Assembly (NCBI GenBank): GCA_030754595.1
Contig: JASLZZ010000012.1
Coordinates: forward strand, 1-12,765
DNA: 12,765 bases
Reading direction: 5' to 3'
Origin: Nitrospinota bacterium
Lineage (GTDB): Bacteria > UBA8248
The notes below the pieces were generated by a model. That model was not told where the DNA came from and searched no databases. It saw only the letters and a program-made list of their open reading frames with translations. The position numbers and the translations under genes were made by a program. Below, piece after piece: positions 1-12,765 of the stretch (the stretch's first letter is position 1; every line of letters begins with the position of its first letter).

Positions 1-2
1 GG

Positions 3-386
3 GTCTTCACCGACGGGGAGGGCAACGTCGGTGAGGGCTCTAACATGAACATGGCCTTTGTCACCCGGGACGGGGTTTTGAAACACCCCCGTTTCGAGAA
101 TATCCTCTCGGGATGCACCGTGGTGCGCCTCCTGGAGTTGGCTCCCGCGCTCGTGAGCCTGGGCGTCATCAAGGATATCGTCGTGGGCGATATTCCGGTC
201 GAGGAGGCGAAGGACGCGGCGGAGATGATGCTGATCGGCAGTTCGATTCAGGTCGCGCCGGTGGTGGAATGGGACGGAAAAATGATCGGGGACGGCAAAC
301 CGGGCCCCGTTTCAAAGGCGATGCTCCGGCTACTCGAGGAGGACATGACATCAGGGGAAGGAAGGCTGATCGACGTGCCGTACTAA
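3..386 (+). CDS. PLP-dependent aminotransferase class IV (IlvE/PabC/D-amino-acid aminotransferase family), C-terminal part, 5'-truncated by the window
   Basis: Frame is open from base 3: VFTDGEGNVGEGSNMNMAFV...ILSGCT...AEMMLIGSSIQVAPVVEWDGKMIGDGKPGPVS. This matches the class IV motifs EGsxxN, iLxGiT and Exf.tgs...v.PV..iDG..ig.G.pGpv. Confidence 0.9.
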   Translation, partial: VFTDGEGNVGEGSNMNMAFVTRDGVLKHPRFENILSGCTVVRLLELAPALVSLGVIKDIVVGDIPVEEAKDAAEMMLIGSSIQVAPVVEWDGKMIGDGKPGPVSKAMLRLLEEDMTSGEGRLIDVPY

Positions 387-578
387 TTTTTTCCTTGCTC
401 CGGGGTGCCGGCCGCATGGCGCGCGATTATTTTTCTAACCTATTGATTCCTCTCTCTCCCTATTGTTTTTTGAAGCGAGGAAAAAGTTAAAGTTCATCAT
501 TAAAAAACATCCCTTAAGTTTCGGTTGTACATCATAATCAACCAATGCCGCTAGCCGAGCGGGCGGTTATCGTGTACT

Positions 579-779
579 ATGAAAGATGTCCTTTTAATCA
601 TTTTATACTTTGTTGGTCCGACCGCCCGGGGATTTTCCTCTCTATTATACATGGGACTTTTCTTCCGCCCTCGCGAAAACCGCGATGGGAATGGAGGTTC
701 CGGGCAGGGACATCGAAGCCATTCACGCCGGTCCGGGCGGCTCCCAAGCTGCCGCCGGACGGACCAAGGAAAAACATGA
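579..779 (+). CDS. possible small membrane protein (66 aa), translationally coupled to the radical SAM gene
   Basis: Hydrophobic N-terminus (VLLIILYFVG...LLYMGLFF) followed by a Gly/charged tail. Its TGA overlaps the ATG at 776 (ATGA). No clear RBS. Confidence 0.3.
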   Translation: MKDVLLIILYFVGPTARGFSSLLYMGLFFRPRENRDGNGGSGQGHRSHSRRSGRLPSCRRTDQGKT

Positions 780-2233
780 GCAGACCATCATTTACCAACG
801 ATAACGCCTTATACGCTAATCTTATTCCGATACCCGGGATGATCCCCAGACAATCGAGCCGGTTTCGGGGGGAAGGCGATTCCGCCTTTCGCACCAATTT
901 TCCGGCCAATCCTTTCCGGGTGTTCACGGCGCGCCAGCTGGATAAAATTCCTCAGCTCGAACTCCTCTCCAGGGACCAGCGGTTTTCGATGAAGGTGGTT
1001 TCGAGCGTACTCCCCTTTAGGATGAATCAATATGTCATCGACAATCTCATCGACTGGGGAAATGTTCCGGAAGACCCCATCTTTCAGCTCACCTTCCCCC
1101 AGCCCGGCATGTTGTCTCCCGAAAACTTCGGCCGGATGGCGGACCTGATCAGAGGCGGGGCCTCCAAGACGGAAATCGATGCGGCGGCGACCCGAATCAG
1201 GGCCCAGTTGAATCCTCATCCGGCAGGTCAGCAGGAACTCAACGTTCCAATGCTCGGCGACGAGGCAATGGAGGGGATGCAACACAAATACCGCGAAACC
1301 GTTCTTTTCTTCCCGAGCCGGGGACAGACCTGTCACTCCTACTGCACCTTTTGTTTCCGGTGGGCGCAGTTCGTAGGCGACAAGGGACTCCGGTTCGCCT
1401 CGCACGAAGCCGAATCGCTCCACGCCTATCTCGCGGCGCATCCGGACGTGACCGATCTTCTTCTTACCGGCGGCGACCCGATGGTCATGAAAACCCGGAA
1501 CCTGGAGGACTATCTGTACTCCTTGGCCAACAACCCCTCCCTCGAGCACATTCAAACCGTTCGAATCGGGACTAAATCCATGACCTTCTGGCCCCACCGA
1601 TTTGTCACGGACGACGATGCCGACGATATGCTCCGTCTCCTGGAGCGGCTCGTGAAAGCCGGAAAGCATGTGGCCCTGATGGCCCACTATAATCATTGGC
1701 GCGAGATGGAGACCGACATCGCCCGAGAGGCCATCCGGAGGGTTCGGGGGACCGGCGCGATTATCCGCAGCCAGGGGCCCGCCCTGGCGCATATCAACGA
1801 CAGCGCCGACACCTGGGCGCGAACGTGGCGAACCCAGGTGAAACTCGGGATCGTCCCTTACTACATGTTCGTTGAGCGGGACACCGGTGCGCGCCGCTAC
1901 TTCGAAATTCCGTTGGTGGAAGCGTTTGAGATTTACAGCGGAGCGTTAAAAGCGGTTTCGGGGCTCGGGCGCACGGTCCGCGGCCCCAGCATGAGCGCGG
2001 AGCCGGGCAAAGTGGAGATTCAGGGCGTCTCCGAAATCCGGGGCGAAAAAGTATTCGTATTAAGGTTCATTCAGGGCCGGAATCCCGACTGGGCGCAACG
2101 TCCGTTTTTCGCGAAATTCGACGAGAAGGCCATATGGTTCGATCAACTCGTCCCCGCCTTCGGCGAAAAAGAGTTTTTCTACGAAGCCGAGTTCCGGGCG
2201 ATGAAAGAAAATATGGCCGAGGCGCTAACCTGA
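776..2233 (+). CDS. KamA-family radical SAM protein (lysine 2,3-aminomutase-like; substrate uncertain)
   Basis: CxxxCxxC motif (TCHSYCTFCFR) preceded by GMQHKYRETVL, then DLLLTGGDPM, RIGTK, HYNH, PYYMF and PGKV (candidate PLP lysine). The ATG at 776 follows AAGGA; the ORF-track start at 545 is probably an over-extension. Confidence 0.88.
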   Translation: MSRPSFTNDNALYANLIPIPGMIPRQSSRFRGEGDSAFRTNFPANPFRVFTARQLDKIPQLELLSRDQRFSMKVVSSVLPFRMNQYVIDNLIDWGNVPEDPIFQLTFPQPGMLSPENFGRMADLIRGGASKTEIDAAATRIRAQLNPHPAGQQELNVPMLGDEAMEGMQHKYRETVLFFPSRGQTCHSYCTFCFRWAQFVGDKGLRFASHEAESLHAYLAAHPDVTDLLLTGGDPMVMKTRNLEDYLYSLANNPSLEHIQTVRIGTKSMTFWPHRFVTDDDADDMLRLLERLVKAGKHVALMAHYNHWREMETDIAREAIRRVRGTGAIIRSQGPALAHINDSADTWARTWRTQVKLGIVPYYMFVERDTGARRYFEIPLVEAFEIYSGALKAVSGLGRTVRGPSMSAEPGKVEIQGVSEIRGEKVFVLRFIQGRNPDWAQRPFFAKFDEKAIWFDQLVPAFGEKEFFYEAEFRAMKENMAEALT

Positions 2234-2453
2234 TAGCCCGTCGCCCGATTGTCCCTTCAGACCACTTCTCCTAGAGCGCTTTTCCAGAGTACCTTTTTAT
2301 GAAATCCACCGGCATGTATGCCCCCGGGTCGATCTTTGCGCGCAATAATAATCCTCGCCGGCATCCTCCGCCAGGACGGGCTCCCGCCGAGACGGACGCA
2401 CCCCCAGAGCCGAAAAAACTGACAGCAAGTATCATGCCGCCAAACGGGTCGCC

Positions 2454-3857
2454 TCACTTTTTGGGCGGGTTGTGGATGGCGGCGCCATGCACATCGTGCG
2501 CCGCCTCCATGACAGCTTCCGACAGCGTCGGATGTGAATGAATGGTTCCGCCGAGATCGACCGCAGAAATATTATTTCGAATCGCCACCGCCGCCTCGTG
2601 AACCAAATCGGCCGCGTGAAGGCCGACCACATGAACCCCGAGGATCGAATCGTCCTCCGCATCGGCGATTATCTTCACTTCCCCCGATATCTCGCGCTCG
2701 GCATGTGCCTTCCCCAGCCCCCGCATCTGAAAGCGGCCGATACGCAGGTCTCGGCCTTCGTCCCTGGCCTGCCGCTCGGTGAGGCCGACGACGCCCACCT
2801 CGGGATGAGTGAAGATTCCCGCGGGAATGCCCCGGTAGTCCATGGCGACATCTCCCCCCGTCGCGTTTTCCGCCGCGACGACACCTTCCGCAGACGCCAC
2901 ATGGGCGAGCATGAGCCCCCCGATGACATCCCCGGCGGCATAAACTCCCGGCACATTCGTCTCCATCTTGTCGTTCACCGTGACATCGCCCCGCTCGCCG
3001 AGCGCAACCCCGATTTTGTCGAGGCCCAGGTTGTCGGTATTGAAAGTGCGGCCGATGGAAACGAGAACCAGATCCGCCGCGACGAGATCGCCACCCTCGA
3101 TTTGCGCGGCCATCTCGCTTCCGCTCGGTTCGACCTTGAGAATTTTCCTGCCGGTGAGGACCTTGATTTTCTGTTTCTTCAACTCCCGCTCTATCAGCTT
3201 AGACACATCCTCATCGCCCAGGGGAAGCGCCCGGTCGAGCAACTCGACCACAGTGACCTCCACCCCTATCTCCCTGTAAAAGCAGGCGAATTCGCATCCG
3301 ATCGCGCCCGCTCCGATGATGAGGAGCCGCTCGGGCAACTCCTTTAGATGAACCGCCTGATCGCTCGAAATGATTCTCTTCCCGTCGATTGGAAAAGCCG
3401 GGATCTGCGCCGGCCGCGCACCCGTCGAAACGAGAATTTTATCGGCCCGGATTTCCTCCTCATCGCCTTCCGCTCCCCGGACGCGAATGAGGGCTTTTTC
3501 CACTATCGACGCCTCGCCAGCGAAACGTTCGACCCGGTGCGCCTTGAAAAGGCCTTCGATGCCCTTCACCAGGCCCGCCACGATTTTGTCCTTGCGCTCG
3601 ATCATATGACCCAAATCGGCCTTGATCTCCCCGGTGATCTCGACCCCGAAATCCCGGGACCGCTTGATGCTCCGGTAAACATCGGCCGAGCGAATGAGGC
3701 TCTTGGAAGGGATGCACCCCCAGTTCAGGCAGGTGCCGCCGAGGGCGCCTCGTTCGATGACAATGCATTTCGCCCCCCGCTGGGCCGCGCGAACGCCGGC
3801 AACATATCCCGCCGGCCCCCCTCCAATCACAGCGAAATCGTACGTTGAATCCACCAT
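2454..3857 (-). CDS. lpdA: dihydrolipoyl dehydrogenase (E3)
   Basis: FAD motif IGGGPAGY, redox disulfide GGTCLNWGCIPSK, NAD motif IGAGAIGCE, YAAGD and C-terminal HSHPTLSE. The ATG at 3857 follows GGGGGAG. Confidence 0.95.
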   Translation of the reverse strand: MVDSTYDFAVIGGGPAGYVAGVRAAQRGAKCIVIERGALGGTCLNWGCIPSKSLIRSADVYRSIKRSRDFGVEITGEIKADLGHMIERKDKIVAGLVKGIEGLFKAHRVERFAGEASIVEKALIRVRGAEGDEEEIRADKILVSTGARPAQIPAFPIDGKRIISSDQAVHLKELPERLLIIGAGAIGCEFACFYREIGVEVTVVELLDRALPLGDEDVSKLIERELKKQKIKVLTGRKILKVEPSGSEMAAQIEGGDLVAADLVLVSIGRTFNTDNLGLDKIGVALGERGDVTVNDKMETNVPGVYAAGDVIGGLMLAHVASAEGVVAAENATGGDVAMDYRGIPAGIFTHPEVGVVGLTERQARDEGRDLRIGRFQMRGLGKAHAEREISGEVKIIADAEDDSILGVHVVGLHAADLVHEAAVAIRNNISAVDLGGTIHSHPTLSEAVMEAAHDVHGAAIHNPPKK

Positions 3858-3973
3858 ATCTCCCCCCGGGCCCCGGGCCCGAACAACAATAATCAGATGA
3901 AATATTAACCGATTCAAGAATACCCCATGGGGCCGAAACAGTCTGCCCTTGGCCTCTATTCCTCCCGCAATCG

Positions 3974-4003
3974 TTGACCAATGGAGTCCGCCCTCTGTAG
4001 GAT
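3974..4003 (+). promoter_or_regulatory. candidate sigma70 promoter for the GDP-sugar genes
   Basis: TTGACC (3974-3979), 18-bp spacer, TAGGAT (3998-4003) in the divergent lpdA/gmd intergenic region. Confidence 0.4.
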
Positions 4004-4040
4004 TCCCCCTCGGTTGTATGTCCCCGGAAAGGAGCTAAAA

Positions 4041-5000
4041 GTGTCGGATCGCGTACTTATCACCGGAATCACCGGGTTCGTGGGCAGTCACCTGGTCGAC
4101 TACCTGCTCACCTTGGATGATGTTGAAATTTTCGGCATGCGGCGGTGGAGAAGCCGCACCGAGCATATCGATCACCTGACCGACAGCGTGAATATCGTCG
4201 AGTGCGATTTGCGGGACCAGATTTCCGTCAGCCAGGTGTTGATTGATACCCGGCCCACGAAAATTTTCCATCTCGCGGCGCAAAGCTTTGTCCCCACATC
4301 CTGGACGGCTCCGGAGGAAAGCCTGCACACCAACATCATCGGAACGCTCCACCTTCTTGAGGGCGTCCGCCAGGCGGGAATCGACCCATGGATTCAGGTG
4401 GCGGGAAGCAGCGAGGAATACGGCTTGGTGCACCCCGACGAGGTTCCGATCACAGAGACCAACCCGCTGAGGCCTCTCTCCCCCTACGCCGTGAGCAAGG
4501 TTGGAACCGACCTGCTCGCCTACCAGTTCCACCAGAGCTACGGGTTGAAACTCGTACGAACCCGCGCATTCAACCACACCGGTCCGCGCAGGGGCGATGT
4601 ATTCGTTTGCAGCGATTTTGCCAAGCAGATAGTCCAGGCCGAGAAAGGGGATCGCGAGCCTGTCATTCACGTCGGAAATCTCGAGGCCAAGAGAGACTTC
4701 ACCGATGTGCGGGATATCGTGAAAGCATATTGGCTATCCTTGCTCCACGGCGAAGCGGGCGAGGTCTACAATATCGCCTCGGGAACCACTTGGACGATTC
4801 GCGAGGTGCTGGACATGCTAATCGCCCTCTCCAACATCGAGATCGCCATCGAGGAAGACCCGGCAAGAATGCGTCCCTCGGACGTGGAAATTCTTCTGGG
4901 CGATTCGTCGAAGTTTCGGGAAGCCACGGGCTGGAAGCAGGAGATTCCCTTCGAGCAAACCTTGCGGGACATACTGGACTACTGGCGAGAGCGTTTGTGA
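4041..5000 (+). CDS. GDP-mannose 4,6-dehydratase / GDP-4-keto-6-deoxymannose reductase family extended SDR
   Basis: GTG start after GGAAAGGAG. Motifs LITGITGFVGSHL, HLAAQSFV, GSSEEYG, SPYAVSK (YxxxK), FNHTGP, GNLEAKRDFTDVRD and RPSDV. Confidence 0.92.
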   Translation: MSDRVLITGITGFVGSHLVDYLLTLDDVEIFGMRRWRSRTEHIDHLTDSVNIVECDLRDQISVSQVLIDTRPTKIFHLAAQSFVPTSWTAPEESLHTNIIGTLHLLEGVRQAGIDPWIQVAGSSEEYGLVHPDEVPITETNPLRPLSPYAVSKVGTDLLAYQFHQSYGLKLVRTRAFNHTGPRRGDVFVCSDFAKQIVQAEKGDREPVIHVGNLEAKRDFTDVRDIVKAYWLSLLHGEAGEVYNIASGTTWTIREVLDMLIALSNIEIAIEEDPARMRPSDVEILLGDSSKFREATGWKQEIPFEQTLRDILDYWRERL

Positions 5001-5950
5001 AAGCCCTGATCGCGGGCATTGCCGGATTCGCCGGCAACCATTTGGCCGAGCACCTCCTCGAGCTTGGTTACGATGTGTCGGGCATCGCTCTCCCGAAATA
5101 ATCGCTGGATAACCTGAGCCGCATATCCGGCCGGGTCATCCTCCACCGGGGAGACCTTCTCGATAAAGAGGAAATCCGGTCCATCGTCTCGGAGACCCGG
5201 CCCGATCGCGTATTCCACCTGGCGGCGCTAAGTTCGGTCCCCGCCTCGTGGGAGGACCCCGCCCGAACTTTCGAAACCAATATCAACACGGGCATCCATC
5301 TTCTTGAAGCCTGCATGGCCGCGAAAAACGAAATGCGAGTCCTGCTCGTCAGTTCGGCGGACATCTACGGAGGGGGCGACCTCTCCGGCCAAATCACGGA
5401 AGAATCGCCGTATGCCCCCAACAATCCCTATGCGGTGAGCAAACTGGCTCTGGACCTCGCATCCGCCAAAATCGCGGAGGCAAACGGGCTCCACCTCGTC
5501 CGGGTGCGGCCGATGAACCATACCGGACCGCACCAGGCTACGGGATTTGTCATTCCGGATTTATCCAAGCAAATAGCCGAAATTGAAATCAAAAAGAAAG
5601 ACCCGATTTTAAGAACCGGCAACCTGGAACCCCGGCGCGATTTCTCGGATGTCAGGGACATTGTCCGGGCCTACGCGGTGGCCGCCGAGCGCGGACACCC
5701 CGGAGAGGCTTATCTCGTCTGCTCGGGCCAAACGAATTCAATCCGCGAGGCTTTGGAGGTACTTCTCTCCTATGCGAAAATTTCGATCATGGTCGAAGCG
5801 GATTTACGGAAAAACCGCCCCAGCGAATCCAATGTCGGGTCCGCATCCCACAGCAAATTCACTCAAACGACAGGCTGGCATCCAGAAATTCCCTTCGAGC
5901 AGACCTTGCGGGAGACCCTCGATTACTGGCGGGAAAAGATCGGCCGCTGA
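4997..5950 (+). pseudogene. second GDP-sugar SDR (Rmd-like reductase) interrupted by an in-frame TAA at 5099-5101
   Basis: The GTG start overlaps the upstream TGA (GTGA). The frame reads VKALIAGIAGFAGNHL...IALPK*SLDNL...GDLLD...RPDRVFHLAALSSVPASW... and continues in the same frame into the 5315-5950 ORF (SSADIYG, YAVSK, NHTGP, GNLEPRRDFSDVRD). Confidence 0.85.
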
Positions 5951-6117
5951 TCCTATGGCCCTCTGGCGGGAAAAGACGGGGCCCTGATCGTCCGGCCACA
6001 ATGAATACCGAGCCGCAATGAATCCCGGGTTTCCCTCCAAACGCCATTTAATTGCTTTCATTATGGGGAAAATATCCCCTTCCCAGGCGTGTTTTGGGGC
6101 TTTTTCCCTTTTTTCAC

Positions 6118-6236
6118 CCCCAATATCTGGGGAAAAATTGTGAACAACTCCACATATTTTGTGGATTTTCATAAAAAATTCTTGACAACCCCATATCTGG
6201 TGCTTTATCTTTATCCCATTATACTATATGTACTTA
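6118..6236 (+). promoter_or_regulatory. NrdR-box-like operators (two good, two weak) upstream of nrdJ
   Basis: Compared with consensus acaCwAtATaTwGtgt: CCCCAATATCTGGGGA (6118-6133), TCCACATATTTTGTGG (6149-6164, weak), ACCCCATATCTGGTGC (6188-6203), ATACTATATGTACTTA (6221-6236, weak). Starts within each pair are 31 and 33 bp apart. Confidence 0.7.
6182..6211 (+). promoter_or_regulatory. sigma70-like promoter of nrdJ
   Basis: Perfect TTGACA (6182-6187), 18-bp spacer occupied by an NrdR-box-like site, TATCTT (6206-6211), AT-rich upstream tract. Confidence 0.65.
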
Positions 6237-6440
6237 CAGAGGCCCCTAGGTTCAGGGTTTTCGTAGGTCGTTTTCCTGGTTCCACCGGATATGCCTGAAT
6301 TTAGGTTTGTTATCGGTTTTGTTGATCGCCGGTTTTGGCCCAGATGATTGAAAAGGAAAAAAAGACGAATACAATACGAACAATGTTGATTTTTTGAATT
6401 TCGCCCGAAATTCAGCCCGAAATTCAGAGGAATTTTTTAA

Positions 6441-9400
6441 ATGAAATTTGATCGTTTATTCACCTTCTCCGGGGCGGGCCCATACGAGGATATCAACTTC
6501 GTCCCCCGGACCTCCCGAATCATCAACCCGGACGGAACAGTTGTATTTGAAGCAAAAGACATCCTGGTTCCCGAGAACTGGACCCAGGTCGCGGTCGATA
6601 TCATCGCCCAGAAATACTTTCGGAAGGCGGGGGTTCCCGCCAAACTGAAAAAAGTCGCCGAATACGGCGTGCCCGAGTGGCTCCAGCGTTCCGAGGCCGA
6701 CGAGGAGGCTTTATCCACGCTCCCCGAGGACGAACGGTTCGGCATGGAGCGGGACGCTCGGCATGTATTTCACCGGATGGCGGGATGCTGGGCCTATTGG
6801 GGATGGAAACACGACTACTTCGGCGACGGGGAAAACGCCAGGGCCTTCTACGACGAGATCACTTTCATGCTCGCCGGCCAGATAGCCGCGCCAAACTCCC
6901 CCCAATGGTTTAACACCGGCCTCAACTGGGCCTATGGAATCGAGGGCCCCGCCCAAGGCCACCACTACTGCGACCCGATTACGGGAGAAGTGACCCGGTC
7001 CAAGAATGCCTACGAGCGGCCCCAGCCCCACGCCTGCTTCATCCAGTCGGTCAACGACGATCTCGTGAACGAGGGCGGGATCATGGACCTCTGGGTGAGC
7101 GAGGCGCGCATTTTCAAATTCGGTTCGGGGACGGGGTCGAATTTCTCGAACCTGCGGGGCGCGAACGAACCCCTCTCCGGCGGCGGAAAAAGCTCGGGCC
7201 TGATGAGCTTCCTCAAAATCGGCGACCGCGCCGCCGGCGCCATCAAATCGGGCGGCACCACCCGCCGCGCGGCAAAAATGGTCATCCTCGACGCCGATCA
7301 TCCGGACATCGAGGAATTCATCAACTGGAAGGTCCGCGAAGAACAGAAAGTGGCCGCCCTGGTTACGGGCAGCCGGACCTGCAACCGGCACATGAACTCC
7401 ATCATCGCCGTCTGCAACCCCAAGGATCAGGCCGAACTGAACGGCGGACTCTACCTTCTCGAGGAAAATCCCGTCCTCCGCGCCGCAGTCCGCAAGGCCC
7501 GAGACGCCGGTGTGCCCGACAACTACATTCACCGCGCCCTTCAGCTCGCCAAGCAGGGCTACAAGGAAATCATTTTCGACGAACTCGACACGAACTGGGA
7601 GGGCGAGGGTTACGCCACCGTCGCGGGCCAGAACTCGAACAATACGGTCCGCCTGAAGGACGAGTTCATGAAAGCCGTCGAAGAGGGCGGAACCTGGAAT
7701 CTCATCCAGCGGACGGACGGCGCGGTGGCGAAAGAGCTCGAGGCCAGGGATTTATGGGACCAGATCGGCTACGCGGCCTGGTGCAGCGCGGATCCGGGCC
7801 TGCAATTCGACACCACCATCAACGACTGGCACACCTGCCCGGCGGACGGCCGAATCAACGCCTCGAACCCCTGCTCGGAGTATATGTTCCTCGACAATAC
7901 GGCCTGCAACCTGGCATCGATGAATCTCATGCGATTCCTCGACACCGATACGGGCGGTTTCCGGGTGGACGAGTACCGGCACGCCGCCCGGCTCTGGACG
8001 ACCGTACTCGAAATTTCCGTTCTGATGGCCCAGTTCCCGAGCCGGGACATCGCTCTCAGGTCCTACCAGTACCGCACCCTCGGCCTCGGCTATGCGAATC
8101 TGGGCACCCTTCTCATGGTGCTCGGAATTCCTTACGACTCGCCCCAGGCCGAGGCTTGGTGCGGAGCCCTCTCCGCGATCATGACGGGCTGTTCATACGC
8201 GGCGAGCGCCGAGATCGCATCGGAGATGGGGGCCTTCCCGCGCTATGACACCAACCGGGAGGACATGCTCCGCGTCATCCGGAACCACCGCCGCGCCGCC
8301 TACGGCGCGCCGCCGGCGGAATACGAGGACATCTCCAAGGCCCCGGCGGGCATCGACCCCAGCCACTGCCCTCCCTACCTGCTGTCGGCGGCGAGGAAGG
8401 CGTGGGACAGCGCCCTCAACCTGGGCGAGCAATTCGGCTACCGCAACGCCCAGGCCACCGTTATCGCGCCCACGGGCACAATCGGCCTCGTGATGGACTG
8501 CGACACCACCGGAATCGAGCCCGACTTCGCTCTGGTGAAATTCAAGAAGCTGGCGGGCGGCGGCTATTTCAAAATCATCAACCAGTCGGTTCCGATCGCC
8601 CTGAGAAGGCTTGGCTACGGCGAGGAGGAAATCAGGGAGATCGTCGCCTACTGCCGGGGCCGAGGAAGCCTCACGAACGCCCCCCACATTAATCCCGAAT
8701 CGCTCATCGAGAAGGGATTTACGGAGAAAACCCTCGAATCGGTGGAGGCGGCGCTCGAGGGGGCCTTCGAGCTTCCGTTCGCGTTCAGCAAATATACGCT
8801 CGGAGAGGAATTCTGCCGCGAAAAACTGGGGCTCACCGACGAACAGCTCGGCGACTGGAGCCTCAACCTCCTCGAAGCCATCGGCTTCACGCCCGGGGAA
8901 ATCCGCGAGGCGAACGATTATGTATGCGGGATGGTGACAATCGAGGGCGCCCCCCATCTCAAGGAAGAGCATCTCGGGATTTTCGACTGCGCGAACCGTT
9001 GCGGCCGCGGGGGCAAGCGCTACATCAGCCCGATGGCCCATGTGCGGATGATGGCCGGAGCCCAGCCGTTCATCTCCGGCTCGATCAGCAAGACGATCAA
9101 CCTGCCCAACGAGGCGACCATCGAGGAGATTCAGGGTCTCTACCACGAGTCCTGGAACCGGGCGACCAAGGCCATCGCTCTCTACCGGGACGGCTCGAAG
9201 CTCAGCCAGCCGCTAACGACGCAGCTTCAGACCGGCCTTTTCGACGAGGATGAAAGCGACGACAAGGGGGCGGGCGAAAGCCGGCCCGTCCATGTGGCGC
9301 AACAGATTGTGCGCCGATACATGTATCAGGGCCGCCGCCGCAAGCTCCCCACCCGGCGGGGCGGTTACACCCAAAAGGCCATCGTCGGCGGCCACAAGGT

Positions 9401-10100
9401 CTATCTCAGGACCGGCGAATACACCGACGGGAATCTGGGCGAAATCTTCATCGACATGCACAAGGAGGGCGCCGCCTTCCGCAGCCTGATGAACTGCTTC
9501 GCCATCGCGATATCGCTGGGGCTCCAGCACGGTGTACCGCTCGATGAGTTCGTGGACGCTTTCGTGTTCACGCGCTTCGAGCCGGGCGGCATTGTCGAGG
9601 GCAACTCTCATATCAAGATGAGCACCTCGATCATCGACTACATCTTCCGCGAGCTGGCCCTCAGCTACCTGGGGCGTAACGACCTGGCGCAGGTCAAGCC
9701 CGAGGACCTGAGGGGCGACACCATCGGCCGGCCCGAGAACGAAATCCCAGAGTTCGACGTCGAGACCGAGGAAGTGGTCGAAACCTTGGAGGTGGACGTG
9801 GACGTGCCGCGCAGCGATCATCTCCACCTGGGCCAAAAAGATGACAACGGCAATTCTATTGACAATGGTGCTGACACACATAACGAAAACGAGAGAAAAG
9901 ATACAGAGCAAGACCTTATTTATACGAGAAGTTCTAGACCAGTTCCCGACCTTAAAGCACAAAATGCGAACCAAGTTGAATCAGCTCGAGTTAAGGGCTA
10001 CGAGGGCGAGGCCTGCGGCGATTGCGGGCATTTCACGCTCGTGCGAAACGGCACATGCCTCAAGTGCATGACTTGCGGTTCGACAAGCGGATGCTCGTAG
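6441..10100 (+). CDS. nrdJ: vitamin B12-dependent (class II) ribonucleotide reductase
   Basis: [43 protein letters not shown] (thiyl-radical Cys), [20 protein letters not shown], a C-terminal TSCPD-like domain ([11 protein letters not shown]...SIIDYIFR) and a Zn-ribbon CGDC...[19 protein letters not shown] upstream. Confidence 0.96.
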
Positions 10101-10126
10101 TAGAGGCGCGTGACGACTGAATAATT

Positions 10127-10504
10127 TCCCGTCTCAGGGGTAACGGGCGGACTCTGTGGCGGGTAGAGGGCCGGTAGGCAGACCTTGGAGGTTTGGCTGC
10201 CGGCCCTCACCAAATACGAACTTCCTGGCGTGGGGCACACGGGCGGACTCTGCGTCAGGACGAGGGCCGGTAGGCGGACCTTGGAGGTTTGGCTGCCGGC
10301 CCTCACCAAATTACGAGTTTCCTGGCGTGGGGCACACGGGCGGACTCTGCGCCAGGATGAGGACCGGAAGGCGGACCTAGGAGGTTTGGCTTCCGGTCCT
10401 CGCCAAATACGAATTTCCTGTCGCGGGGCACACGGGCGGACTCTGCGGCGGGATGAGGGCTGGTGGGCGGCCTTGGAGGCTTGCTCGCCAGCCCTCGCTT
10501 TTTT
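10127..10504 (+). repeat. tandem array of four ~96-nt double-hairpin units (putative structured ncRNA)
   Basis: Unit starts are 10127, 10223, 10320 and 10416. The invariant ACGGGCGGACTCTG occurs at 10143, 10239, 10336 and 10432 (period 96/97/96). Each unit has two stems with compensatory substitutions. Confidence 0.92.
10455..10504 (+). terminator. intrinsic terminator formed by the last hairpin of the array
   Basis: GAGGGCTGGTGGGCGGCC-TTGGA-GGCTTGCTCGCCAGCCCTC followed by GCTTTTTT. Confidence 0.6.
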
Positions 10505-10539
10505 CGGCCCCCTTGCTTTATTTCGCCCTACACCGACGC

Positions 10540-10568
10540 TTGACACCGGCAGGGCGTTGGCCTAATTT
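10540..10568 (+). promoter_or_regulatory. sigma70 promoter of tRNA-Ala
   Basis: TTGACA (10540-10545), 17-bp spacer, TAATTT (10563-10568), 13 bp before the tRNA. Confidence 0.75.
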
Positions 10569-10581
10569 CGGGCTCCTGTGT

Positions 10582-10657
10582 GGGGGTGTAGCTCAGCTGG
10601 GAGAGCGCGTGGATCGCACCCACGAGGTCAGGGGTTCGAGCCCCCTCACCTCCACCA
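10582..10657 (+). tRNA. tRNA-Ala (anticodon CGC)
   Basis: Cloverleaf: acceptor GGGGGTG/CACCTCC with the G3:U70 Ala determinant, D arm GCTC/GAGC, anticodon stem CGTGG/CCACG with loop AT-CGC-AC, T arm AGGGG-TTCGAGC-CCCCT, discriminator A and encoded CCA. 76 nt. Confidence 0.97.
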
Positions 10658-10723
10658 ACAAAATCAACGGGTTACGGGTAAAGCCGGGCCCGTTAATTTG
10701 TTGAGGTAAGCACAAGGTAAGCA
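10657..10723 (+). other. tRNA 3'-flanking hairpin plus direct repeat; candidate att-site/integrase arm-site remnant
   Basis: Imperfect inverted repeat AACAAAATCAACGGG...CCCGTTAATTTGTT (10657-10702), then AGGTAAGCA twice (10704-10712, 10715-10723). Confidence 0.45.
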
Positions 10724-10774
10724 TCAGATTTCATCTGCATGACAAGCCCGCCATAGAAGCGCAGGAGGTCTCCT

Positions 10775-10990
10775 ACATTCGCAAAGCGGTTACGCGAGCT
10801 CACTCCCAATGAGATCCAGCAGCCCGTAACCGAGTCCGTGCAGGAAGGGCCTGATATCGAATTCAAGGCGACCCTGACGCCAGAATGGGTGATGACCCTT
10901 GGATTCAAAGCCAGGAAAGTATTGGAGACCGTGCCCGAAATGAAATAATTGAAGGGGTCATCGCCTTCGCCAATGCCCACGGGGGGACCG
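10775..10990 (+). pseudogene. Schlafen AlbA_2-type (putative DNA-binding/ATP-binding protein) N-terminal fragment, frameshifted and truncated
   Basis: After AGGAGG there is no ATG (ACA instead). The frame reads TFAKRLRELTPNEIQQPVTESVQEGPDIEFKATL, shifts near 10880, then reads GDDPWIQSQESIGDRARNEIIEGVIAFANAHGGT. E...EFK and AFAN..GG are the AlbA_2 signatures. Confidence 0.8.
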
Positions 10991-12088
10991 TTAGTGCCCC
11001 TCACCGAGGGGGAGCTTCACCACTTCTCCGGTGCGCGCCGATTCTTCCATCGCAATCGTCACTTCCAGCGTCTGGCGTGCCTCCTCAGCCGTGGCAAGGT
11101 GGCAGGGCCGCCCTGTCGAGAGATAATCGAGCCACCCGCGCGTCTCGTCACCGATAGGGCCATACATGTTGTCCAGCACCCAGTCTCCCGACGAAGTGCT
11201 ACCCAGGAATACCATCGGCAGGGAGTGATCGGGCACATAGGCATGCGGATAGCCTTTCTCGGTATAAAAAATATTCTCTTTATGGTCCTCATCGAACATC
11301 AAAACACCTTCCGTTCCGATTATTTCGAGACGGACACTCTGCCCCGCCGTGGGATATTTAGCCGGAAGGGAATAACAGATACCCAGATTCACCACCGCCC
11401 CGTCCTCGAACGTGATGATGGCCCAGCTGAGATCATCCGCATTGGGATATCCCGCCTCCTTGAAAACAATCCCATGCCCCCGGCAGATGACCTCGACCGG
11501 CCGGTTTCCCTTCATGAACCAGCACATCATATCGACATAGTAAGTCAAAACATCGAGAACGGGTGTGGCATCGGCCGAACGCTTGAGTATTTCGAGTGCC
11601 TGCGCCCGTGAGTTGAAGACTCGCCCCGTCGCGCCGACCAACGTGCCCAGCCGTCCTTCGTCTATCTGCTCCTTGCCCAGAAAATACTGCCGCTTGTAGC
11701 GCATGATGTATCCCACACGCAGATCGCCATTACTTTTTTCCACGGCGGAAAGCACCCTGTCCGCATCTTCGAGCGACATGGCAATGGGCTTTTCGACCAG
11801 GACGGGCTTGCTAAGCTCAAGAGCCTGCAAAATGGGCTCCACATGGGCGAACTCGGATGTGGAAATAATCACGGCGTTGACGTCGGGATGCGCGATTATC
11901 TCCTCGTTGCTGCCCGATGTGACCTGCGCCCCCACGCGCTTTCCGAGCGCTCCGGCGCGCTTCGGGTCCAGATCGGAAATCGCCAGGAATCGAACCGCCG
12001 GATGCTGAACGGCCAGGCGGGAGCGGTGCGTCCCGATACGGCCGGCTCCGATAACGGCAATGCCGAGTTCTTTTCTATCGAATCGCAT
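10991..12088 (-). CDS. Gfo/Idh/MocA family oxidoreductase
   Basis: IAVIGAGRIG Rossmann motif, VLVEKPIA, VGYIMRY, D..TYYVD, LEIIGTEG, ESARTG..VKL. The ATG at 12088 follows AGGGGTGG. Confidence 0.92.
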   Translation of the reverse strand: MRFDRKELGIAVIGAGRIGTHRSRLAVQHPAVRFLAISDLDPKRAGALGKRVGAQVTSGSNEEIIAHPDVNAVIISTSEFAHVEPILQALELSKPVLVEKPIAMSLEDADRVLSAVEKSNGDLRVGYIMRYKRQYFLGKEQIDEGRLGTLVGATGRVFNSRAQALEILKRSADATPVLDVLTYYVDMMCWFMKGNRPVEVICRGHGIVFKEAGYPNADDLSWAIITFEDGAVVNLGICYSLPAKYPTAGQSVRLEIIGTEGVLMFDEDHKENIFYTEKGYPHAYVPDHSLPMVFLGSTSSGDWVLDNMYGPIGDETRGWLDYLSTGRPCHLATAEEARQTLEVTIAMEESARTGEVVKLPLGEGH

Positions 12089-12107
12089 GAAACCACCCCT
12101 GGTGTGG

Positions 12108-12222
12108 CTAGAAGTCATTTCATAACCCATTCCCGAGGTTTCCACCCCTGTGAGAAGGCCGATAAAATCAAGGCCTTTGACGGACGAAGATTCCGCGAAA
12201 GAGGTTATGAAATGACCTCTAG
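12108..12222. mobile_element. MITE-like element (115 bp) with 20-bp terminal inverted repeats beginning CTAG
   Basis: Left end CTAGAAGTCATTTCATAACC (12108-12127). The reverse complement of 12203-12222 is CTAGAGGTCATTTCATAACC, a 19/20 match. The interior has no coding capacity. Confidence 0.65.
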
Positions 12223-12298
12223 AAAAATTCCACCTTCAAGCTATGATGTTAAACTCGACTTGGAACGTCCTAACCACGCATTCCCGCCAAAAAGCTAC

Positions 12299-12348
12299 AA
12301 ACCCCGTATAGGCAAGGAAATCCCTTGTTTATACGGAGTTTTTCTTTT
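12299..12348 (+). terminator. long hairpin followed by a T-rich tract (terminator-like or att-flanking)
   Basis: AAACCCCGTATAGGCAAGG-AAATC-CCTTGTTTATACGGAGTTT, then TTCTTTT. Confidence 0.45.
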
Positions 12349-12395
12349 GGATGAATGATACGGAGGGCGACCAAATTAGCTCTTTTTTGATGCCC

Positions 12396-12419
12396 AACCG
12401 GCACCAGAACCGGCACCAG
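12396..12419 (+). repeat. perfect 12-bp tandem direct repeat, possible integrase/excisionase binding sites
   Basis: AACCGGCACCAG twice, immediately upstream of the RBS of the excisionase-like gene. Confidence 0.55.
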
Positions 12420-12437
12420 ATCAAAGGAGCATAAATA

Positions 12438-12555
12438 ATGGAAACCACCGCAGAGCAATATCTCAGTACCAAAGAGCTTATGGCTCTCCTCGGCATATCA
12501 AGGTCCACCAACTACCTCCTGTTGGATGTTGGTCTTCCTTGCCTGAAAGTAGGGG
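12438..12555 (+). pseudogene. excisionase/AlpA-like helix-turn-helix gene interrupted by an IS3 element
   Basis: AAGGAG RBS. METTAEQYLSTKELMALLGISRSTNYLLLDVGLPCLKVG fits the Xis/HTH_17 pattern (yLt.kE.a..LgisrsT.Y.....glP..kvG). Similarity ends where the IS terminus begins at 12556. Confidence 0.75.
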
Positions 12556-12765
12556 TGAGGGTTCCCCAAAAACTGTTCCGGGCATTAGGTAAGGATTCCG
12601 GCATTAAGACAGGCCCGGCGAGCTAGGCCTGTCCGGGCAAATTCGCTGGGTGTTTTGTTTCCCAGCGATGAATGTGGTCTGAACTCGTTGTAGTCTTTTC
12701 GCCATGTTCTGATTTTGACCCGGGCGTCCTCCAATGACAAGAACCAGTTCACGCCCAGGCATTCG
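12556..12765 (-). mobile_element. IS3-family insertion sequence (IS407-group-like), right end; continues beyond the window
   Basis: On the minus strand the element ends ...CCGGAACAGTTTTTGGGGAACCCTCA-3', the canonical IS3 CA end, directly after the transposase stop codon. Confidence 0.85.
12585..12764 (-). CDS. IS3-family transposase OrfB, C-terminal 59 aa (not in the ORF track)
   Basis: Manual translation: [62 protein letters not shown]...WF.SL..AR..I..WR.DYN..RPHSSLG..TP.EF is the IS3 integrase-core tail. Confidence 0.92.

Follow-up and report, generated by a model that had tools for sequence, protein, structure and literature searches.

A tandem array of covarying double-hairpin RNA modules behind the ribonucleotide reductase gene nrdJ of Nitrospinaceae-type bacteria

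The ribonucleotide reductase gene nrdJ of a Nitrospinota bacterium (assembly GCA_030754595.1) is followed by a tandem array of four double-hairpin units, which we have analysed in contig JASLZZ010000012.1 (positions 1 to 12,765 of the forward strand; this whole stretch of 12,765 nucleotides is referred to as the window). A preliminary description of the window had proposed that the array is a structured RNA under selection for both its fold and the sequence of one loop. The data show that the array belongs to a structured RNA family that is real and strongly supported, that we have not found described and that is specific to Nitrospinaceae-type bacteria among the genomes searched. The array is probably the 3' untranslated region (3'UTR) of nrdJ, and its modules may serve as docking sites for a trans-acting factor.

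RESULTS

Organization and fold of the array

The array spans positions 10127-10504 of the window and consists of four head-to-tail units of about 96 nt. The units start at 10127, 10223, 10320 and 10416, which gives the periods of 96, 97 and 96 nt reported in the preliminary description. Tandem Repeats Finder calls a period of 96 at 10143-10496 (3.7 copies, 86% matches, score 515) and the four units align over 97 columns with a mean identity of 87%, in agreement with this arrangement. The units abut directly in the alignment, with no unique spacers between them.

All units follow one plan, hairpin 1, hairpin 2 and a linker, and all lie on the + strand. Unit 1 (10127-10222) has hairpin 1 at 10127-10164, hairpin 2 at 10166-10208 and an A-rich linker at 10209-10222; its invariant loop and stem top are at 10143-10154 and it scores 106.5 bits with the covariance model. 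The corresponding elements of unit 2 (10223-10319) are at 10223-10260, 10262-10304 and 10305-10319, with the invariant stretch at 10239-10250 (107.9 bits), and those of unit 3 (10320-10415) are at 10320-10357, 10359-10401 and 10402-10415, with the invariant stretch at 10336-10347 (112.4 bits). Unit 4 (10416-10504) has hairpin 1 at 10416-10453, hairpin 2 at 10455-10496 and the invariant stretch at 10432-10443 (88.4 bits). An A-rich linker had been ascribed to every unit; this holds for units 1 to 3, but unit 4 has no such linker and carries a run of six T residues (10499-10504) in its place.

RNAalifold, run on the four units alone, gives 33 pairs, six of them with two-sided changes. Hairpin 1 consists of 13 pairs and a 12-nt loop, and hairpin 2 of about 19 pairs with one small internal loop. 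The stems quoted in the preliminary description are correct by this fold, its coordinates for hairpin 2 are consistent with the four-unit alignment and the loop that it called invariant, ACGGGCGGA, is the same in all four units.

The fold is strand-specific. The + strand of the array folds with -253.3 kcal/mol (z -10.3) and none of 100 shuffled sequences folded as well, whereas the - strand reaches -175.4 kcal/mol (z -4.9). Likewise, the covariance-model scores are 88-112 bits on the + strand and 26-30 bits on the - strand. Both measures favour the strand on which selection had been claimed to act, and they show that the array is an RNA-level structure of the + strand.

Covariation and invariant positions

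We collected 79 units (72 of them distinct) from 30 related loci. In a model-guided alignment of these units, which leans towards the model, standard pairs fill 94.8% of the cells, compared with 46-54% when the 3' partners are slid by one to three columns. Two-sided changes occur in 25 of the 32 pairs, and no column shuffle in 500 reached any of five pairing measures. An independent RNAalifold run on the 79-unit set returned 29 pairs, 22 with two-sided changes. The compensatory changes and the selection for fold that had been read from the four units are thus borne out across the relatives.

The same is true of the proposed selection on loop sequence, as all 72 distinct units have the loop bases CGGGCGGA and the adjoining CTC without change. 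Columns 20-30 (CGGGCGGACTC), G11 and G13 are the same in every distinct unit, G12 in 71 and A19 in 69. The frozen part of hairpin 1 is made up of the closing pairs G-C, G-U and G-C together with the last nine loop bases (3' side). The wobble pair in this platform, G12-U29, is G-U in 78 of the 79 units and G-C in none. In the 5' part of the loop, three or four bases are variable, and the stems outside the frozen part covary freely. A GGA is always present within CGGGCGGA. In hairpin 2 the base G-A-G ... C-U-C is kept, covarying to G-G-G ... C-C-C, and the apex C-C-U-N-G-G-R-G-G is conserved; at this apex, 40 of the 72 distinct units have G after the GG and 27 have A.

Distribution and copy number

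The assembly that holds the window, which makes up one entire contig (C12), consists of 138 contigs and is 96.9% complete. In that genome neither BLAST nor a four-unit covariance model returns anything beyond this locus (E <= 1). Among 60 relatives, the four-unit model finds one to four units in 31 of the 36 genomes of the same family and in none of the 24 outside it. A model built from the 79 units matches 36 of the 41 other family genomes and none of nine genomes from other families of the phylum, so that 37 of 42 family genomes are carriers when the window's own genome is included. There is one locus per genome, always on the strand of nrdJ. Dispersed copies, which the preliminary description had named as the mark of an ordinary repeat of the REP/BIME type, were therefore seen neither in the window's genome nor in any of the relatives.

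The 30 related loci contain one unit (three loci), two units (10), three units (12) or four units (five), with unit spacings of 94-123 nt that are mostly not multiples of three. The module is shared across genera in which NrdJ is only 65-75% identical. In three loci (L019, L021 and L024) there is a middle unit between units 1 and 2 that has no hairpin 1 and keeps a hairpin-2-like stem, and one unit of a further locus (L037:1404-1490) scores only 34.8 bits. The presence of decayed units in some arrays suggests that modules are gained and lost over time.

We also scanned prokaryotes for the motif pattern, with one genome per species, and examined 80 of the at least 119 stretches that it returned. 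Both a covariance-model match and nrdJ are present in 18 of these, labelled as Nitrospinota or Nitrospinaceae (five), Candidatus Tectomicrobia (one) or simply 'bacterium' (12). The other 62, which come from many taxa, e.g. Streptomyces, are without a covariance-model or nrdJ match and were rejected as unrelated; the motif spacings in them are often multiples of three. A single viral contig matched a 20-nt pattern and was rejected as a phage copy, with the motif alone aligning (12.7 bits). At the three nrdJ loci that we read in the sister family there is no such element; these genes are followed by plain G+C-rich hairpins, one of which has a T run behind it.

Position of the array between nrdJ and tRNA-Ala

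The gene upstream of the array, nrdJ (6441-10100, + strand), encodes a class II (B12-dependent) ribonucleotide reductase (RNR) of 1219 amino acids with the Pfam domains Ribonuc_red_2_N, Ribonuc_red_lgC and TSCPD, and its product is the only RNR catalytic subunit detected in the genome. An A/T-rich spacer of 26 nt (10101-10126) separates its stop codon from unit 1. All 30 related loci have the array immediately after nrdJ and on its strand, and in 27 of them the gap between the stop codon and unit 1 is 8-26 nt, A/T-rich and not conserved in sequence. In the related loci the third positions of the last 35 nrdJ codons vary freely, which argues against a promoter embedded in the 3' end of the gene, and a consensus promoter scan of 9800-10800 returned no sites. 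Taken together, the data show that there is neither room for, nor any sign of, a promoter belonging to the array itself.

Hairpin 2 of unit 4 (10455-10496) and the six T residues behind it have the shape of an intrinsic terminator; a simple terminator scan does not report this hairpin, the loop and stem of which exceed the limits of the scan. In the ten bases behind hairpin 2 there are at least four T in 26 of the 30 last units (TTTT in 19), and at least four A in 41 of the 49 inner units. Because the tails of the last units are T-rich and those of the inner units A-rich, the last hairpin 2 can be assigned the form of an intrinsic terminator.

Downstream of the T run there is a likely, near-consensus promoter (TTGACA, 17 nt, TAATTT; 10540-10568, + strand), recognized by eye and not called by the consensus scan, which ends about 13 nt upstream of tRNA-Ala(CGC) (10582-10657, + strand; ARAGORN, and 61.4 bits with the Rfam tRNA model). 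In many relatives the TTGACA box follows at once behind the T run of the last unit, which suggests that terminator and promoter are packed back to back. The tRNA-Ala(CGC) gene is downstream on the same strand in 25 of the 30 loci, and among the five exceptions two loci are truncated by the end of a contig. Beyond it, on the opposite strand, is an oxidoreductase gene (Pfam GFO_IDH_MocA). The domains of nrdJ and the tRNA calls agree with the flanks named in the preliminary description. From this arrangement we infer that the array is the 3'UTR of nrdJ and that its last hairpin probably doubles as the terminator.

Transcript traces in RNA libraries

At least half of the words sampled from the stretch are present in 14 DNA runs from seawater or marine metagenomes, and small shares of them in six RNA runs. 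We examined four RNA runs from three studies, all stored as assembled contigs. One RNA-library contig of 151 nt runs without mismatch from nrdJ (10016) into unit 1 (10160), with 85 nt of gene and 34 nt of array. A second one spans 10365-10502, and the 10 further letters at its end agree with a sister species and not with the window. Their depths, 2.5 and 3.5, are similar to those of the nrdJ pieces and cannot rank the array against nrdJ. Most of the array (about 10161-10364) is without contig cover in the four runs. These contigs lend weak support to co-transcription of nrdJ and the array.

Comparison with known RNA families

At gathering scores, Rfam 15 matches only the tRNA in the whole window, in accordance with the earlier statement that the family was not recognized. 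When 10050-10600 was searched in E-value mode there were 16 matches, all far below threshold. The best of these is RF02235 (asX1), which all four units match with 16.3-22.6 bits against a gathering score of 70 (E-values of 0.37-5.8 for the search of 551 nt). The four units align to the two-hairpin outline of asX1, a small RNA (sRNA) of Xanthomonadaceae, but the alignment leaves out most of the model, the phylum is a different one and asX1 is an antisense RNA. Membership of asX1 was rejected on the scores. A full-text literature search, which was not exhaustive, found no paper that deals with an RNA downstream of nrdJ or with Nitrospina small RNAs.

The array resembles the 3'UTR-derived sRNAs of enterobacteria (CpxQ, SdhX, DapZ and similar) in several respects. 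It is located directly behind a stop codon, it has no promoter of its own, it shares the terminator of its parent mRNA (a G+C-rich hairpin and U run at 10455-10504) and it has, ahead of the terminator hairpin, a short single-stranded stretch of high conservation. In contrast with these sRNAs, the module of the array is repeated up to four times and a 12-nt loop above a frozen G-U platform holds the conserved stretch; no Hfq was detected in the genome of the window. With CsrB, RsmY and RsmZ it has in common repeated stem-loops with a shared short G-rich loop motif, a closing terminator and a copy number that differs between genera. However, its units are 96-nt double hairpins, it forms the 3'UTR of a protein gene instead of being a gene in its own right under a regulated promoter, the Rsm models of Rfam give no match to it, and it is present in 32 genomes in which CsrA was not found.

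Like REP/BIME elements and 3' stabilizer hairpins, the array consists of G+C-rich hairpins in a 3'UTR between genes that are tandem or convergent, and protection of the mRNA is plausible. REP elements occur as hundreds of dispersed copies in both orientations, whereas the array occurs at a single locus per genome, in one orientation and with an invariant loop. It also resembles ToxI of type III toxin-antitoxin systems, as both are tandem structured RNA repeats that run up to a terminator, and processing into units is conceivable. ToxI units are about 36 nt long, compared with about 96 nt here, and the array is followed by a promoter and tRNA-Ala (25 of 30 loci) rather than by a toxin gene and is inherited vertically at a housekeeping locus across the whole family. 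In summary, the array does not show the features that define any of the named families tested; it is kin to 3'UTR-derived regulators and repeated-hairpin sponges.

Candidate partners at the locus and beyond

Just before the nrdJ ribosome-binding site there is a direct repeat, GCCCGAAATTCA, in 2.1 copies (6403-6427). Together with the bases just upstream, it can form an 8-bp duplex with the loop of hairpin 1 (-14.8 kcal/mol, z -2.4). The repeat is present in two of the 21 nrdJ 5' untranslated regions (5'UTRs) tested, those of the window's genome and one relative of the same genus. In the other 19 the z values range from -1.6 to +0.6, so that pairing between loop and 5'UTR, which is above background in this genus only, was rejected as a property of the family. 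Complementarity to tRNAs is limited to G-U-rich runs of 8-9 nt against the common T-arm, and we judged it to be due to chance.

NrdJ itself was considered as a possible RNA-binding partner. Its residues ~1083-1167 (window 9687-9941) form an acidic low-complexity linker before the cysteine-rich C-terminal tail, and NrdJ of the sister family cannot be aligned with this linker. The linker accounts for the extra length of the protein compared with that family, with no additional folded domain, and an RNA-binding insertion was therefore rejected. In two genomes of one genus an open reading frame (ORF) of 83 to about 95 amino acids with its own ribosome-binding site is inserted between nrdJ and the array (L018:1242-1490, + strand, and the matching place in L027); in L027 a remnant that retains hairpin 2 only lies behind it. 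The 83-amino-acid ORF has no Pfam match and is found in two of 51 genomes of the phylum, and it was dismissed as a partner.

Other features of the window

The region upstream of nrdJ (6110-6240) contains a TTGACA box and four A/T-centred palindromes, e.g. ccacatattttgtgg and cccaatatctgggg, which resemble what we take to be the consensus of NrdR boxes. Similar palindromes are found upstream of nrdJ in relatives. A gene for NrdR is present in the genome (contig C122, TIGR00244, 186 bits), and a post-transcriptional layer at nrdJ would therefore add to transcriptional control by this repressor. Further upstream, the ORFs at 3981-5000 and 5315-5950 both match profiles of GDP-mannose 4,6-dehydratase/epimerase. 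The second of these (211 amino acids) covers profile positions 119-332 only, and it could be a truncated paralogue or have its true start further upstream.

DISCUSSION

Proposed role of the modules

We give about an even chance to the reading, drawn from the sequence data, that the array is a 3'UTR built of modules, each of which would offer an invariant docking site to a trans-acting factor. On this proposal nrdJ and the array would be transcribed together, as a single RNA with its end at the last hairpin. Each module would display its invariant loop on the locked G-U platform and, together with the U-N-G-G-R apex of hairpin 2, would form a docking site that is specific in both sequence and shape. 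The factor would most likely be an RNA-binding protein. A protein is favoured over simple antisense pairing because both sides of the G12-U29 wobble and the neighbouring pairs are frozen, and a seed would constrain one strand only; that the wobble is never replaced by G-C or A-U suggests direct recognition. Repetition of the module would raise the number of sites. If the array acts in cis, the bound factor might set the lifetime or the translation of nrdJ mRNA; if it acts in trans, the 3'UTR might titrate the factor, possibly once the A-rich linkers have been cleaved. In either case, some process would be tied to the expression of nrdJ.

Several results weigh against docking of a trans-acting factor. 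No partner of the array was identified among those checked, and the 12 invariant nucleotides could equally be an antisense seed. The covariance model finds no further copy of hairpin 1 in the window's genome, and hence no regulon of sites such as is typical of an RNA-binding regulator. In a mutual-information scan the helix pairs alone rank high, with no tertiary contacts or covariation outside the two helices and so no sign of a pseudoknot. The array was not detected in five genomes of the family (still none of five under laxer filters), although these are fragmented (280-560 contigs, 79-93% complete) and therefore uninformative either way. With regard to the shared transcript, the RNA contigs are few and of low depth, carry-over of DNA could account for them, and one of them extends 10 nt past the T run.

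Alternative explanations

A serious rival, although a clearly less probable one, is that the array, or units cut from it at the linkers, is a 3'UTR-derived base-pairing sRNA that would use the loop ACGGGCGGACUC as an antisense seed in trans. The modules would multiply this seed, and the sRNA and nrdJ would have a terminator in common, which is also the case for known sRNAs of this kind. Twelve invariant nucleotides would be usual for a seed, the array lacks a separate promoter and the A-rich tails of the inner units (41 of 49) could be cleavage sites. The single-unit form, found in a genus with small genomes, also has the classic layout of stop codon, A/T-rich stretch, hairpin with conserved loop, and terminator hairpin with T run. 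However, a seed alone would need less than is conserved here, where both partners of G12-U29 and the two adjacent G-C pairs are frozen, and Hfq, as noted above, was not found in this genome. Nor do targets stand out: the exact 11-mer has 10 other sites in the window's genome, all deep within long reading frames and split evenly between target sense (five) and loop sense (five), and exact complements of the 12-mer outside the arrays number 0-3 per genome in 42 genomes, about the same as a reversed control. These searches covered exact complements, and imperfect targets were not searched with gene calls. It is unlikely that the hairpins are just a passive 3' stabilizer and terminator of the REP or retroregulator kind, which would block 3'-to-5' exonucleases and end transcription before the tRNA promoter. 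They are very stable, a T run follows the last of them with the promoter right after it, and nrdJ of the sister family is trailed by plain G+C-rich hairpins, one with a T run. Such a role leaves unexplained why eleven nucleotides of loop and stem top are invariant (72 of 72 distinct units) amid freely changing stems, why the C-C-U-N-G-G-R-G-G apex of hairpin 2 is conserved and why the module is retained across genera. A riboswitch-like 3'UTR element, in which the modules would bind adenosylcobalamin, dNTP, ATP or dATP and set decay or termination, with tandem copies sharpening the response, is decidedly improbable. We know of no riboswitch that has been established in a bacterial 3'UTR, Rfam 15 gives no riboswitch match, and we found no multi-helix junction, no pseudoknot, no covariation beyond the two helices and, by eye, no alternative pairing between hairpin 1 and the terminator hairpin. 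In its favour, covarying stems with frozen unpaired bases are an aptamer-like pattern, and a mini-hairpin GGG(21-23):CUC(28-30), seen by eye, could compete with GGG(11-13). Moreover, the nrdJ enzyme is B12-dependent, and the cultured Nitrospinae strains of one study reportedly seem, by genome analysis, to be B12 auxotrophs (PMC8026999).

Further explanations have still less to recommend them. A clamp on the 30S or pre-30S ribosomal subunit, formed by the invariant loop bases ACGGGCGG and the apex of hairpin 2, would be very unlikely. ACGGGCGG is fully complementary to CCGCCCGU, a stretch of the organism's 16S rRNA that we take to be the universally conserved decoding-centre sequence, and it is the sole Watson-Crick match of at least 7 nt for the 12-nt loop; in addition, the GGRGG of the hairpin-2 apex can pair with the 3'-terminal CCUCC of 16S rRNA. 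Yet a control stretch of 4.8 kb beside the 16S gene contains seven matches of 8-9 nt, in either sense, which places the 16S match well within chance for G+C-rich DNA, and pairing with the ribosome leaves the frozen stem top unexplained. If true, this reading would tie the availability or maturation of ribosomes to the supply of DNA precursors. A sponge of the CsrB/RsmZ type, which would sequester CsrA through GGA motifs in the loops, is extremely unlikely. Both conserved loops contain G-G-A or G-G-R, the repeated stem-loops end in a terminator and the RsmW model gives 14.6 bits (gathering score 52), but the hairpin-2 apex is GGG and not GGA in many units and the array lacks its own promoter. 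No CsrA (PF02599) is detected in the window's genome; it was found in seven of the 42 family genomes and in none of the 23 of genus g8, where the RNA is present in 21, and this distribution effectively rules the sponge out. It is barely conceivable that the array is no RNA element at all, and is instead a DNA repeat of the REP/BIME type, a CRISPR-like array, a type III antitoxin repeat or a coding repeat. It is a tandem direct repeat with hairpin potential and long open frames run over it on both strands, but the strand-specific fold with its G-U pairs argues for RNA; the overlapping frames have no Pfam match, and unit spacings that are mostly not multiples of three argue against a coding repeat. 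A REP/BIME repeat was rejected on the single locus per genome in one orientation, and a CRISPR array on units that abut without unique spacers beside nrdJ, sugar dehydratase and oxidoreductase genes. A type III toxin-antitoxin system was rejected because tRNA-Ala follows downstream and then, on the opposite strand, the GFO_IDH_MocA oxidoreductase gene. By Pfam and ARAGORN the neighbours (nrdJ, the sugar dehydratases, tRNA-Ala and the oxidoreductase) include no cas or toxin gene, as had been noted before.

Significance

Nitrospinaceae-type bacteria are the main nitrite oxidizers of the ocean. The array is among the better-supported orphan structured RNAs that can be obtained from sequence alone, its strengths being two covarying helices, an invariant loop, a fixed genomic place and a copy number that depends on the genus. 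To our knowledge, bacterial 3'UTRs with a conserved, modular and sequence-specific structure are still rare. As the B12-dependent NrdJ is the only RNR found in this genome, anything joined to nrdJ mRNA sits at the gate of DNA synthesis. The three strains of Mueller et al. (2020) seem to be vitamin B12 auxotrophs by genome analysis, a trait proposed before for N. gracilis (PMC8026999). The covariance model of the array can be used in annotating Nitrospinaceae-type genomes, and the partner of the modules, once found, would reveal a regulator that binds RNA or else a family of 3'UTR-derived riboregulators, new in either case.

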